The notes: a model not told the origin generated them from the letters alone. 64,000 bases of DNA from Minisyncoccota bacterium (GCA_035546615.1 DASZWM010000003.1:64001-128000); one strand, 5' to 3'. Shown: positions 24,158 through 40,912, counted from the first letter of the stretch. Translations and numbers: made by a program.

Positions 24158-25015
24158 CTAGGCCAGGAAGGGGTCAAGCGCCCCTTCAAGCACGCCTTCG
24201 GCATCGCGGACCTCCACATTGGTGCGGTGGTCCTTCACTAATTTGTACGGATGAAGCACGTAGGAGCGTATCTGATTGCCCCATTCGATCTTGCCGACTG
24301 CGGTTGAAAGTTCGTCTATGCGCTCTTTGCGCTCCTCTGCCATAAAATGGAGCAGTTTCGCCTCTACTATCGCAAGCGCCTTCTCCTTGTTCGCTCCCTG
24401 CGTGCGCTCGCCGTCAACGTGCGCGGAAATGCCGGTAGGCTTATGCACGATGCGCACCGCCGTTTCGCGCTTGTTGACGTTCTGGCCGCCCGGGCCGCCG
24501 GAGCGCGCCACCGTTATTTCAAGGTCGTCTTCGGGAATATCGATATCGGACACTTTTTCCAAGACCGGCAGGACCTCCACGAGCACGAAGGACGTGTGCC
24601 GTTTGGCGGAGGCATTGAACGGCGAGATGCGCACGAGCCGATGCACGCCGTACTCGTTTTTGAGCGTGCCGTACGCGCGCTTCCCCGCTATTTCTATCGA
24701 AAGGTTGCGGTAGCCGCCGCGGTCGTTCCGGTTCTCGTGCAGCAGCTTGTAGCCCCAGCCGCGGTTTTCTATGAACTTGCGGTACATCTCAAAGAGCATG
24801 TGCGCGAAATCCTCGGCATCGTCCCCGCCCGCGCCCGCGACGATGGTGAGTATGGCGTTGCCGTTCTCGTATTTGCTGCCCCCCTCAAGCTCTGCCTTGA
24901 GGTCCTGGAGCTCTTTTATGAGATTCCGGGCCTCGGCAGGGTTGCTCCAAAAGTCCGGAGCCTGCATCGCTCCTTCTATCTCCCTGATGCGCTTTTCTAC
25001 CTCTTCTTTGGTCAT
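24158..25015 (-). CDS. prfB: peptide chain release factor 2 (short N-terminal domain)
   Basis: Motifs GGQ and SPF ([17 protein letters not shown]2-specific). Only about 50 aa precede the conserved core. No frameshift site. The start codon directly abuts the tRNA-Thr 3' CCA. Confidence 0.8.
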
Positions 25016-25091
25016 TGGAGCCGGAGGCCAGGATTGAACTGGCGACCCCGTCTTTACGAAAGACGTGCTCTACCAACTGAGCTACTCCGGC
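25016..25091 (-). tRNA. tRNA-Thr (anticodon CGU), CCA encoded
   Basis: Manual fold: GCCGGAG acceptor, D-arm GCUC-AGUUGGUA-GAGC, anticodon arm CGUCU-UUCGUAA-AGACG, T-loop UUCAAUC, 3' UCCA. Confidence 0.85.
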
Positions 25092-25113
25092 AAAGGAAGT
25101 CAAAGAAAATCTA

Positions 25114-25575
25114 TCATATAAGCAAACGGGCGGCAATCGCTCTTTTACTTATTGCGCGCCCTTTTCTGCCGTTTCCTTTATTGAGATTAGCATAAGTAGG
25201 ACTTAATGCGTCACAGTTCGGACAAACTAGTCTAAGATTTTCTTCTGTATTATTCTGCCAATTACCATCGATATGGTCCGCAACTAACGGCACAAGTCCG
25301 GTAACCGGATTAACTTCCGACCAACCGCACATACAACACTTATCGCCAAACTTTTCTCGCAGATAACGCTTGACCGGCCTTGAGACTATCCCCGTTACCT
25401 TTAGTCCTGTTATCTTTCCCTCTTTCCACTTTTTGATATAAGATTCGTGCTGCAATTGTGCCTGGCACTTGTTACTGCAATAGGTGTATCCAGCGCGAGC
25501 AGTCTCTGTACCACACAGAACACACGCGCTACGTGGTTTTTTAGGCATCGACATACCTACAAGAAGTATATGCAA
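25114..25575 (-). CDS. HNH endonuclease (His-Me finger), free-standing
   Basis: Cys-rich zinc knuckles (CVLCG..CSNKC, CCMCGW..CPNCD) flanking the HNH core ADHIDGNWQNNTEENLRLVCPNCD. An alternative start at MPKKPRSA (25548) is possible. Confidence 0.7.
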   Translation of the reverse strand: MHILLVGMSMPKKPRSACVLCGTETARAGYTYCSNKCQAQLQHESYIKKWKEGKITGLKVTGIVSRPVKRYLREKFGDKCCMCGWSEVNPVTGLVPLVADHIDGNWQNNTEENLRLVCPNCDALSPTYANLNKGNGRKGRAISKRAIAARLLI

Positions 25576-25627: not shown

Positions 25628-25880
25628 AGCCGAAGGCCGGAATCGAACCGGCGACCTACTCCTTCGCTTACACCTCTTTTTTCTTTATAAGAGGGCTAGA
25701 CTGTATCTTTCTCCTGCGAACAGGAGACCCTTGTCAGTCGTTCGAGCGTCTAGGACGCTACGGTCTGGACCAGTCATGTGGCCTTTAACCGTTATTCGGG
25801 ATTCATTCCGACGTTACCGTCGGGATGGGCGGGGTCTGCGACCCACCATGGAGTTGCTCTACCATCTGAGCTACTTCGGC
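25628..25880 (-). tRNA. tRNA (probably Thr, anticodon GGU) interrupted in the anticodon loop by a ~180-nt intron
   Basis: 5' half (25850-25880): GCCGAAG-UA-GCUC-AGAUGGUA-GAGC-A-ACUCC. 3' half (25628-25662): GGAGU-AGGUC-GCCGG-UUCGAUU-CCGGC-CUUCGGC-U. Both halves are complementary in the acceptor and anticodon stems. The acceptor stem is near-identical to the adjacent tRNA-Thr(CGU). Confidence 0.6.
25665..25844 (-). ncRNA. putative compact group I intron (no internal ORF)
   Basis: R-like AACGACUGA and S-like AAGAUACAGUC elements form P7 (GACUG/CAGUC). P3 GACCC/GGGUC. P8 hairpin with UUCG loop. GNRA hairpin CCGACG-GUAA-CGUCGG. P9 hairpin CCUCUU..AGAGG, then a 3'-terminal G. Boundaries approximate. 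Confidence 0.5.
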
Positions 25881-26017
25881 TTATTGTACTGAGTCCCGAC
25901 GCTTTGGTCGGGAGGCCGACTGACACGTCGGCCCTACTTCGGCTTATACAAGAACATCTATCAACTTACAATAAAAACGGCAAAATTGCCAAAAAATATA
26001 GGCGGTATACTGGTGGC

Positions 26018-39040: not shown

Positions 39041-40912
39041 TTAGACTTTTATTTCCTTTTCGGGCGCGGCCGGCGCATCTGGAGCGTCATCGCCGTCCCC
39101 ATCCTCGGAAAGGGCTATCGGGGCCGGCGTTGGCTCGGCCTCGGGAGTATCGTCGAGCTCGAACTCGCCGCCGAGCGTGTTCACTTCCTCAAACGGCACC
39201 GTGCCCTGCGCTGACTTGATGATAGCATCCTCCTTCATGGTGAGCATGCCGTTCTTGCGCGCTATCGAGAACAGCTCGTCCTCCGGCTTGCCGGCGAGTA
39301 TCGCGTGCTCGAAGTCGGAGTTCATGCCCCACATCTCGAACGCCGCGATGCGGCCGCGCGTGCCCGACGGGCAGTCGGGAGTGACGTCCACGCGGTACAT
39401 CTCGTCAAGCGGCGGTATCTCCTTGCGGTATTCCTCCGGCAGGTCCGCGAACTGCTTGTCGAGCATCTCCTTGGTGCTGGAGTCGACTTCCACTTTTTTG
39501 CCGCCGCCCGGGCACAGGGTCTTCACCAGGCGCTGCGCCATGCCGAGGATGAGCACGGGCGGAATGAGGTACGGTTCCACGCCCATGTCCAGGAGGCGCG
39601 GGATGATACCGACGGAGTTGTTGGTGTGGATGGTCGAAAGCACGAGGTGGCCGGTCAGCGCCGCCTGCACCGCAAGGTTGGCGGTCTCGGCGTCGCGGAT
39701 CTCGCCCACCATGATGATGTTCGGGTCCTGGCGGAGCGTCGTGCGCAAGCCGTTGGCGAACGTGTAGCCTATTTCCGGCCGCACCTGCGACTGGGAGACG
39801 CCGGGTATCGTGTATTCGACCGGGTCCTCGAGGCTGAGCACGGTCTGCTTGTCGCGGTCCACCTCGTTAAGGAGCGCGTAGAGGGTCGTTGATTTGCCCG
39901 AGCCGGTCGGTCCCGAGATGAGTATCATGCCGTACGGCTTCTTTATCGCGGTGCGTATCATCTCGAGATTGCGCTTGGAGAGCCCGAAGTCCTCGAGCTT
40001 GAGGACTTTCGCGGAGGCCCCGAGAATTCTCATCACCACCTTCTCGCCGTAGTAGGTCGGGAACGTCGAGACGCGGAAGTCCACCTTGTTGCCGGCCACG
40101 CGCGCGGAGAAGCGGCCGTCCTGCGGCTTGCGCTTCTCGTCGAGCTTCATGTTTGAAAGCACCTTGATGCGCGCCACGACGGCCGAATGCACCTTGGGCG
40201 GCAGGGTGATGTTGGTTACAAGCACGCCGTCGATGCGGAAGCGCACGCGCGTCTGGTCGGCGAGCGGCTCTATGTGGATGTCGGACGCGCGCTGCTCGGC
40301 GGCGTGGCGCAGGACGGTCGCCACAATTTTGGTGACGGGCGCGTCCTCGGTTATCGCCTCCGCGCCGGTGTCGGTAATGATGTCCTCCTCGAGGCTGATG
40401 GAGCGCTTCTTGCCGTCCTTCCCCTCCTTCTGCGCTTCTATAGTGCTTTCGGTGTCGAGCTCGCCGAGCGCCTTGCCCACCTCGCCGGAGAGTCCTTTGT
40501 ACTGCTGGAGCAGGTGCTCGAAATCGGTGTCGGTAATGAGGAATATCTTGTACGGCATGCCTACCTTTGCGGAAATGAAAGTGAGCGCGTCGCGCGCTTC
40601 CAGGTTGTCCGGGTCGACGATGCCGACCTCAAGCGCGCCGTCGACTATCCCCAGCGGCGCAAAGCGGTAGTGGCGCGCGCTTTCCTCCGGCACGAACCGG
40701 AGCACCTCGAAGGGCACGTTCTTGTCGCCCACCTCGCGCGTCGGGAGGCCGTAATAGTCCCCCTTGGCCTTGAGCACCATAGGGAGCGTAATGCCGGCGG
40801 CCTGCAGCACGCCCTCGACGGTCGTGCCCGGCTTTGCGAGCTCGGCGCGAAGCTCGGCCGCCTTCGCGCGGTCAAGCGTCCCTGAATCGATTAAGAGTTG
40901 AAAGAGGTCCAT
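39041..40912 (-). CDS. pilB: type IV pilus assembly ATPase PilB (GspE family)
   Basis: 623 aa. N-terminal GSPII domains, Walker A GPTGSGKST and a tetra-Cys motif region. Confidence 0.9.
   Translation of the reverse strand: MDLFQLLIDSGTLDRAKAAELRAELAKPGTTVEGVLQAAGITLPMVLKAKGDYYGLPTREVGDKNVPFEVLRFVPEESARHYRFAPLGIVDGALEVGIVDPDNLEARDALTFISAKVGMPYKIFLITDTDFEHLLQQYKGLSGEVGKALGELDTESTIEAQKEGKDGKKRSISLEEDIITDTGAEAITEDAPVTKIVATVLRHAAEQRASDIHIEPLADQTRVRFRIDGVLVTNITLPPKVHSAVVARIKVLSNMKLDEKRKPQDGRFSARVAGNKVDFRVSTFPTYYGEKVVMRILGASAKVLKLEDFGLSKRNLEMIRTAIKKPYGMILISGPTGSGKSTTLYALLNEVDRDKQTVLSLEDPVEYTIPGVSQSQVRPEIGYTFANGLRTTLRQDPNIIMVGEIRDAETANLAVQAALTGHLVLSTIHTNNSVGIIPRLLDMGVEPYLIPPVLILGMAQRLVKTLCPGGGKKVEVDSSTKEMLDKQFADLPEEYRKEIPPLDEMYRVDVTPDCPSGTRGRIAAFEMWGMNSDFEHAILAGKPEDELFSIARKNGMLTMKEDAIIKSAQGTVPFEEVNTLGGEFELDDTPEAEPTPAPIALSEDGDGDDAPDAPAAPEKEIKV

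Follow-up and report, generated by a model that had tools for sequence, protein, structure and literature searches.

What interrupts the gene for tRNA-Thr(GGU) in a 64,000-nucleotide (nt) stretch of DNA from a Minisyncoccota bacterium (GCA_035546615.1, DASZWM010000003.1:64001-128000; hereafter the window), and does the insert have the makings of a self-splicing intron? The gene content of the window is that of a bacterial chromosome (pyrG, ftsX, ftsE, prfB, gatA, a type II/IV secretion ATPase gene, recG and the tmRNA gene; about 60% GC). A Candidatus Paceibacterota metagenome-assembled genome (MAG) encodes a protein that matches the HNH protein of the window with 100% identity, and the host therefore belongs to the Patescibacteria, also known as the Candidate Phyla Radiation (CPR). 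We conclude, with a probability of roughly 93%, that the tRNA-Thr(GGU) of this Candidatus Paceibacterota bacterium is interrupted at position 36/37 by a 180-nt group I intron of a known family that lacks an open reading frame (ORF).

The pre-tRNA runs on the minus strand from 25880 to 25628. The 36-nt 5' exon (25845..25880, tRNA nt 1-36) reads GCCGAAG UA GCUC AGAUGGUA GAGC A ACUCC AUGGU and ends in the anticodon nucleotides G34 G35 U36, and the 37-nt 3' exon (25628..25664, tRNA nt 37-73, CCA not encoded) reads AA GGAGU AGGUC GCCGG UUCGAUU CCGGC CUUCGGC U. All four tRNA stems (acceptor, D, anticodon, T) have complementary strands, and ARAGORN recognised the joined exons as a canonical 74-nt tRNA-Thr(ggt). 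The intact precursor, with the insert of 180 nt (25844-25665), folds at -101.7 kcal/mol (z = -5.06 against shuffled sequences). The nearest syntenic loci, L001 and L002, share with the window the gene order tRNA-Met, tRNA-Thr(GGU), HNH, tRNA-Thr(CGU), prfB, ftsE, ftsX and carry an intronless tRNA-Thr(GGU), whose anticodon arm in L001 (728-801) is ACTCC-ATGGTAA-GGAGT. This allele is identical to the joined exons of the window at 66 of 73 positions. It fixes the junction: the insert sits precisely between nt 36 and nt 37, which leaves GGU as the anticodon of the mature tRNA. The initial annotation had proposed a tRNA-Thr(GGU) with intact stems, split at 36/37 by a compact, roughly 180-nt group I intron, and each of these points was borne out; the 187 nt that it gave between the tRNA halves is right as the spacing of the anticodon-stem strands (5 + 180 + 2), the intron itself measuring 180 nt. 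No second tRNA-Thr(GGU) is present within the 64-kb window.

The same arrangement recurs widely. Metagenome contigs were scanned with a pattern that specified the exons only and accepted any insert of 151-211 nt; at least 120 contigs matched. After three tandem-tRNA artefacts had been dropped, the matches listed gave 108 distinct inserts of 169-211 nt, which were aligned with MAFFT (alignment A1). All 108 end in G, all have a GCC able to pair with the exon GGU 10-25 nt into the intron, and all have AGUC near the 3' end; neither the GCC nor the AGUC was imposed by the pattern. A covariance model, R1, was built from A1, with P3 left out of the model. Species-representative genomes were scanned with a core pattern in which the exons were free, and at least 120 genomes matched; 100 of these loci, ascertained differently from A1, were aligned to R1 (alignment A2). 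The junction NU-GGU/...G/AA (slashes mark the splice sites) with a 5-bp anticodon stem was found in 114 of the 121 core-pattern matches listed, the rest being mostly truncated by locus ends or bearing one anticodon-stem mismatch. The anticodon stem of the intron-bearing tRNAs covaries across lineages (ACUCC/GGAGU, CGUCA/UGACG, CAUCC/GGAUG and others). Across the 100 genomes searched with R1, complete Patescibacteria genomes included, the tRNA-Thr introns scored 125-190 bits, and in the window R1 found a single copy, the intron at 25665..25844 (184.8 bits, E=1.9e-62).

The insert is a group I intron by its covariation-supported P1-P9 fold. The layout read from A1 is P1-P2-P3-P4-P5-P6-P7-P3'-P8-P7'-P9.0-P9, with a P3/P7 pseudoknot. 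In A1, 93.5% of the cells of the named structure are paired, against 77.6% after shuffling and 29-48% with slid partners, and compensatory changes occur at 36 of the 51 pairs; the covariation score is 0.478 against 0.173, a value reached by none of 500 shuffles. The figures for A2 are similar (93.3% of cells paired against 73.1% shuffled, 37 of 48 pairs compensatory, score 0.548 against 0.168). The comparison of P1-P9 with homologs, which had been suggested as a check of the initial annotation, supports the fold in both sets.

All parts of the intron lie on the minus strand. P1 is formed by exon nucleotides G34 G35 U36 (25847-25845) and the guide sequence G51 C52 C53 (25828..25830), and it places a U36.G51 wobble at the 5' splice site. 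It is GC/GC/UG in 108/108 sequences of A1, for which the search pattern fixed the exon side only; in A2, where the exon was free in the pattern, it is 100% paired, with GC 98 and UA 3 at the first pair, GC at the second (101/101), and UG 100 and CG 1 at the splice site. The intron's first nucleotides form a variable P1 extension hairpin, GGGUC-GCA-GACCC(C) (25831..25844), with compensatory change at 4/4 pairs (GGGU/ACCC, GGGC/GCCC, GGGA/UCCC, AAAU/AUUU). Between 60 and 80% of its cells are paired per position (82.7% for helix 1 overall), and its register is less certain than that of the other helices. The P2 hairpin follows (25804..25827; 10/10 pairs compensatory, 90% paired). It is capped in the window by G64 U65 A66 A67 (25817-25814), and its loop, L2, is GNRA in nearly all members of the family.

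P3 joins C81 C82 C83 (25798..25800) to G151 G152 G153 (25728..25730), which makes the P3/P7 pseudoknot. All three pairs show double changes in A1 (99.1% paired), and in A2 the helix is formed in 99/99 cases, with 15 compensated variants (CCU/AGG 5, CUC/GAG 5, UCC/GGA 4, UCU/GGA 1). A different P3, GACCC/GGGUC, had been assigned initially. We rejected it, as this GACCC (pre-tRNA nt 45-49) pairs with the first nucleotides of the intron in the P1 extension. The P4-P5 domain (25761..25791) consists of P4 CGGUU/GACCG (25791-25787 with 25765-25761), J4/5 AAA and P5 GGCC/GGUC (25783-25780 with 25771-25768), the latter covarying at 3/4 pairs. P4 is 100% paired and near-invariant, its changes being U.G to C-G and one UA to GC. 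P6, AGCGU-CCUAG-ACGCU (25745..25759), is 95-97% paired, with compensatory changes at 4/5 pairs in A1 and 5/5 in A2 (GGCGC/GCGCC, CCCGC/GCGGG, AGCGC/GCGCU).

The 5' strand of P7, GACUG (25735..25739), is part of the invariant R-like element CGAACGACUGACAA and pairs with CAGUC (25703-25699), which together with J8/7 AAGAUA makes up the likewise invariant S-like element AAGAUACAGUCUA (25699..25709). P7 is invariant in the 108 sequences of A1 and changes from GC to AU at one position in 3 more distant introns of A2; P1 (exon/guide), P4 and P7 are all without variation in A1 and always complementary. Also invariant in A1 are J8/7 AAGAUA and CGAAC-GACUG-ACAA and, in the J8/7-P7' region, alignment positions A143, A145, U146, A147 and C148-U153. 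We infer the position of the G-binding pair within P7. P8 is the plain hairpin UCUCCUG-UUCG-CAGGAGA (25710..25727), whose basal pairs are 4/4 compensatory and 97-98% paired. P9.0, of 2 bp, pairs G185 C186 (25695..25696) with G214 C215 (25667-25666), directly before the terminal G; it is paired at 99.5% in A1, with 38 and 45 double changes, and at 98.1% in A2. P9 is the hairpin CCUCUU-AUAAAGAAAA-AAGAGG (25673..25694; 6/6 pairs compensatory in A1, 92% paired). The terminal guanosine (omega-G, 25665) marks the 3' splice site; it was free in the pattern and is G in 108/108 distinct inserts. No ORF was found within the 180-nt intron, and no convincing P10 can be drawn at its splice sites, because the AAGG of the 3' exon is unpaired with the nucleotides 5' of the guide. 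Apart from P3, the elements listed in the initial annotation are all in place: P7 GACUG/CAGUC, AAGAUA (J8/7), the UUCG-capped P8, the GUAA-capped hairpin (P2), the P9 hairpin and the terminal G.

The alignment also supports a tertiary contact. An asymmetric motif of the type GCUAA...UAUGC is present in P8 in 52 of the 64 introns with a GAAA L2, and in just 2 of the 44 introns in which L2 is GUAA, GCAA, GGAA or another loop, P8 in the remainder being a plain short helix (52/12 against 2/42, Fisher p=2.5e-16, uncorrected for relatedness). The window intron, with L2 GUAA and the plain P8 helix described above, belongs to the second type. The P8 motif resembles the 11-nt GAAA receptor. L2 and P8 thus co-vary like a tetraloop-receptor pair, which supports the fold, and an L2-P8 clamp is known from the Azoarcus intron.

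Such introns have been described before. Table 1 of Nakagawa et al. (2026, mSystems, PMC13011429) includes three complete Patescibacteria genomes with 36/37 introns in tRNA-Thr(GGU). The authors call these "divergent group I introns", borrowing the term of Castelle et al. (2018, Nat Rev Microbiol), and report that RF00028, the Rfam group I model, does not detect them, that ARAGORN calls two of the three as Arg(GCG) 34/35, and that only the dedicated model of tFind (Williams 2020, preprint 10.1101/2020.01.27.920355) detects the Thr introns correctly. In their tree (Fig 6c) the Thr introns sit on a long branch in the IA clade, beside other Patescibacteria tRNA introns, with high bootstrap. At our locus, Rfam at gathering thresholds and default ARAGORN gave nothing, and ARAGORN -i on the window miscalled tRNA-Arg(gcg) i(35,180). 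Phylum, host tRNA, anticodon, site, RF00028 miss, ARAGORN miscall and ORF-less state are all shared with the published family. The window intron is therefore an ordinary member of it, with nothing categorically new; we likened it to the three published introns by their description, and scored sequence homology with R1 on other family genomes. The initial view that bacterial tRNA introns of this kind are rare and known mostly from cyanobacteria and proteobacteria is outdated, given that group I introns occur in some 40% of Patescibacteria genomes (PMC13011429) and that Thr(GGU) 36/37 stands in the table cited. That the intron is among the smallest holds in one sense: its 180 nt is 4 nt below the shortest of the 333 tRNA introns surveyed in that study (184-894 nt), but within its own family there are shorter introns, down to 169 nt in our sample. 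We found nothing usable in the literature on a stated lower size limit for natural group I introns, so the statement rests on the published range.

Among the relatives outside the family are the introns of Patescibacteria tRNA-Asn, tRNA-Asp and tRNA-Tyr (subgroup IA), which share the phylum and the anticodon-loop position and are either ORF-less or HNH-bearing; those of Asn and Asp self-splice in vitro (PMC13011429). They differ from the Thr intron in site (35/36), in host tRNA and in their R and S elements, GUAGAGACUAGA and AAGAUAUAGUCC against CGAACGACUGACAA and AAGAUACAGUCUA. They are also seen by RF00028, which gave 47 bits for the tRNA-Tyr intron of locus L222 against 14.9 bits for the Thr intron of the same locus. 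On the CPR loci, R1 gave three extra full-length matches with E from 2e-6 to 8.5e-5. Two of them, in L222 and L148, are introns in a neighbouring tRNA-Tyr(GUA) according to ARAGORN -i; the third, in L169, has exon and core sequences as in the tRNA-Tyr cases, and ARAGORN -i made no call there. The L222 intron, the one checked with RF00028, reached E=8e-11. These interrupted tRNA-Tyr(GUA) genes (L222:7202-7416, L169:4708-4945, L148:7662-7865), whose introns differ from the Thr type and are of the RF00028 kind, lie within a few hundred nt of an intron-bearing tRNA-Thr(GGU), and in L222 and L169 the two genes are directly adjacent.

Phage introns of subgroup IA, such as those of Staphylococcus phage Twort, are recognisably alike in the P7-P3'-P8-P7'-P9.0-P9 half, and the R element AACGACU of the Thr family resembles theirs. 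Unlike the Thr intron, they lie in protein-coding genes, are larger and often carry endonuclease ORFs. The best R1 match in the 131-kb Twort genome (E=7e-5) is contained in a full-length match to RF00028 (44.9 bits) beside the terminase gene; an assignment of the Twort matches to nrdE introns was rejected, as the supported match adjoins that gene. The sequence matches point to a relation between the Thr(GGU) family and canonical group I introns that is real but distant. A second, weak R1 match in Twort (AY954970.1; L247:1130-1217), at 13.7 bits and E=0.0056, is located between ORF097 and ORF036 and includes GAUAUAGUCUAA, which resembles an S element; it is due either to chance or to a divergent intron that has gone unrecognised.

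With the IC3 introns of Azoarcus sp. BH72 tRNA-Ile(CAU), for which a crystal structure exists, and Anabaena tRNA-Leu(UAA), the Thr intron has in common that it is small, ORF-less and placed in a bacterial anticodon loop, that P1 uses anticodon nucleotides and the anticodon stem holds the exons, that P9.0 and an omega-G are present, and that a GNRA loop in L2 docks on a receptor in P8 (PMC3984707). It differs from them in subgroup, PMC13011429 reporting no IC introns in the tRNAs of Patescibacteria, and sequence similarity is undetectable; the Azoarcus intron has a longer P3 and measures 205 nt against 180 nt.

Several observations weigh against reading the insert as a group I intron that splices by itself. 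With RF00028, the segment 25550-25960 gave no match at E<=10, and the Thr family member of L222 scored 14.9 bits (E=0.33). The lack of a covariance-model hit had been named at the outset as a result that would speak against an intron, yet this miss is not evidence against it, since the model is known to overlook the Thr family (PMC13011429). On Twort, R1 missed all three orf142 introns, and RF00028 gave no match at L247:1130-1217, a site that we did not count as evidence. P4 and P7 are near-invariant and so bring little covariation evidence of their own, and a P3 of just 3 bp is unusually short for a group I core. The structure was partly derived from the sequences on which it was scored, and A2 was fitted to R1, so that both counts lean towards the fold; the shuffle controls ignore phylogeny. 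In PMC13011429, splicing in vitro covers the Asn and Asp 35/36 introns only and no Thr member, and the study reports neither a secondary structure nor a splicing test for the Thr introns.

From the established group I mechanism, we infer that the Thr(GGU) family is self-splicing. The transcribed intron would fold, and an exogenous guanosine bound in P7 would attack the phosphate that follows U36. With P9.0 to position it, the terminal G would then occupy the G-site, and the freed 3'-OH of U36 would attack after omega-G, so that the exons would be ligated and the loop A32-U33-G34-G35-U36-A37-A38 restored. As in other tRNA introns, the exons would be held together by the anticodon stem of the tRNA, and P10 would not be needed.

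It could instead be that the insert has group I architecture without being an autonomous ribozyme, either because a protein cofactor or chaperone is needed or because splicing is too poor, so that maturation of tRNA-Thr(GGU) depends on the host. The 3-bp P3, the very small size (169-211 nt in the family), the failure of RF00028 to recognise the intron and the absence of a Thr-family member from the published biochemistry would all fit. Nevertheless, the core is complete and its elements show strong purifying or compensatory selection in more than 200 genomes, P9.0 and the L2-P8 contact both co-vary, and CPR genomes are reduced, with no conserved protein gene beside the intron (HNH in 1/91 loci). 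The similarly small Azoarcus tRNA-Ile intron (205 nt) self-splices efficiently. Host-dependent maturation therefore seems improbable to us.

The blank results of default ARAGORN and Rfam, and a 14-nt direct repeat with small hairpins just upstream, would also suit a pseudogene broken by an unrelated insertion (a remnant of a miniature inverted-repeat transposable element or insertion sequence) or split tRNA halves that are joined or used in trans. However, the insert always lies at 36/37, always ends in G and always has the guide GCC, its helices covary as a group I fold, and the exons make a perfect tRNA. Neither a promoter-like separation nor a separate gene for the 3' half is needed, and the window offers no other tRNA-Thr(GGU); the chance of such a broken or split gene is very slight. 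The position in the anticodon loop recalls archaeal and eukaryal tRNA introns, and one might imagine a group II intron, or an archaeal-style bulge-helix-bulge intron that a splicing endonuclease removes. The site is 36/37, whereas the canonical one is 37/38; a bulge-helix-bulge motif cannot be drawn at the junctions, as P1 pairs the 5' junction with GCC; no Rfam group II model matches at the locus, and PMC13011429 reports no group II introns in Patescibacteria. With every group I hallmark present in the fold, we give either type virtually no credence and keep to the group I intron.

The HNH ORF (25114-25575, minus strand, 146 amino acids) lies directly downstream of the intron-bearing tRNA, and we considered it as a homing endonuclease, free-standing or collaborative. 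This was rejected: an HNH gene lies downstream of the intron-bearing tRNA in just 1 of 91 other loci with enough flank, it is present alongside the intronless allele in L001/L002, and tRNA-Thr(CGU) is always next to it. No endonuclease ORF was found inside the 180-nt intron or consistently beside Thr introns at the 91 loci, and inheritance is probably mostly vertical. Loss of the intron would be difficult, since an imprecise deletion would ruin the anticodon. The HNH/zinc-finger protein (146-153 amino acids) is itself unusually conserved, with more than 1,500 relatives at 64-77% identity. In 6/6 loci examined (window 25016-25575, minus strand; L001-L006) tRNA-Thr(CGU) comes directly after the HNH gene or overlaps it, the other neighbours being different, so that the two look like a conserved module in CPR genomes.

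Among the matches listed, the hosts are overwhelmingly Patescibacteria (Saccharibacteria, Paceibacterota, Kaiser-, Wolfe-, Yanofsky-, Morani-, Komeili-, Peregrini-, Uhr- and Azambacteria, and others), including the complete Candidatus Wolfebacteria genome CP011209.1 (L192). A few MAGs and one isolate genome among them carry other labels. Searches of a phage collection with the intron by blastn and megablast, and of viral contigs with the exact core pattern, gave no match. The isolate is Niastella populi CCTCC AB 208238, a cultured member of the Bacteroidota (NZ_LWBP01000002.1), which has a full member of the family in its tRNA-Thr(GGU) (L195:5228-5420, 175.6 bits). The region has 40% GC and adjoins resolvase and HerA/TrwB-like genes; it is possibly on an integrated element, which hints at transfer outside the CPR. 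The only core-pattern match outside tRNA-Thr among the matches listed is in an Oscillospiraceae MAG (JAFYHU010000012.1; L139:6579-6773, minus strand). This related group I intron scores 91 bits with R1 and follows the GGU/...GCC guide logic of the Thr family. It is placed between a 328-amino-acid ORF and an RVT_1 reverse transcriptase, in Asn/Gly-rich sequence resembling the repeat of a diversity-generating retroelement, and may thus be a group I intron within the template or variable region of such an element.

The family, its insertion site and the detection problem have been published between 2018 and 2026. The present work adds a covariation-supported secondary structure of the Thr family, with its 3-bp P3, P9.0 and L2-P8 contact; a very wide distribution, in at least 120 species representatives and at least 120 metagenome contigs; and, in Niastella populi, a cultured, tractable host for splicing work. 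Should the family prove to self-splice without help, it would rank with the smallest natural group I ribozymes. There is also a practical side. A real and essential-looking tRNA gene is missed by default annotation, or mislabelled as tRNA-Arg(GCG) by intron-aware ARAGORN, and therefore the genome seems to lack tRNA-Thr(GGU), which lowers completeness estimates for CPR. Since the guide pairs with the very anticodon and free guanosine nucleotide is required for the first step, one may ask whether the family is a distinct minimal group I subclass (169-211 nt, 3-bp P3, and a clamp made of GAAA and the P8 receptor or of GUAA and a plain helix) with a regulatory role, one that in the genome-reduced cells of CPR bacteria would link the supply of their only tRNA-Thr(GGU) to the GTP pool. 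We regard this as a speculative and rather doubtful proposal.

Two further features of the neighbourhood can be mentioned. The 14-nt direct repeat upstream of the tRNA, ATAAGCCGAAGTAG, occurs on the minus strand at 25934-25947 and at 25871-25884, where it consists of 4 nt of leader and the first 10 nt of the tRNA. The 49 nt between the copies hold two hairpins, GGCCGAC-GUGUCA-GUCGGCC and UCCCGAC-CAAAGC-GUCGGGA. No further copy of either hairpin was found in the window, the sole other pattern match, near 39363, differing in the loop. The stretch resembles a small insertion that duplicated its target site, or else a partial duplication of the tRNA 5' end. On the other side of the HNH gene, the prfB frame for release factor 2 (RF2; 24158-25015, minus strand) has only 285 amino acids, and its start as listed abuts the end of tRNA-Thr(CGU). 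The N-terminal part of prfB seems to be absent from this frame, as expected if the usual programmed +1 frameshift is present.

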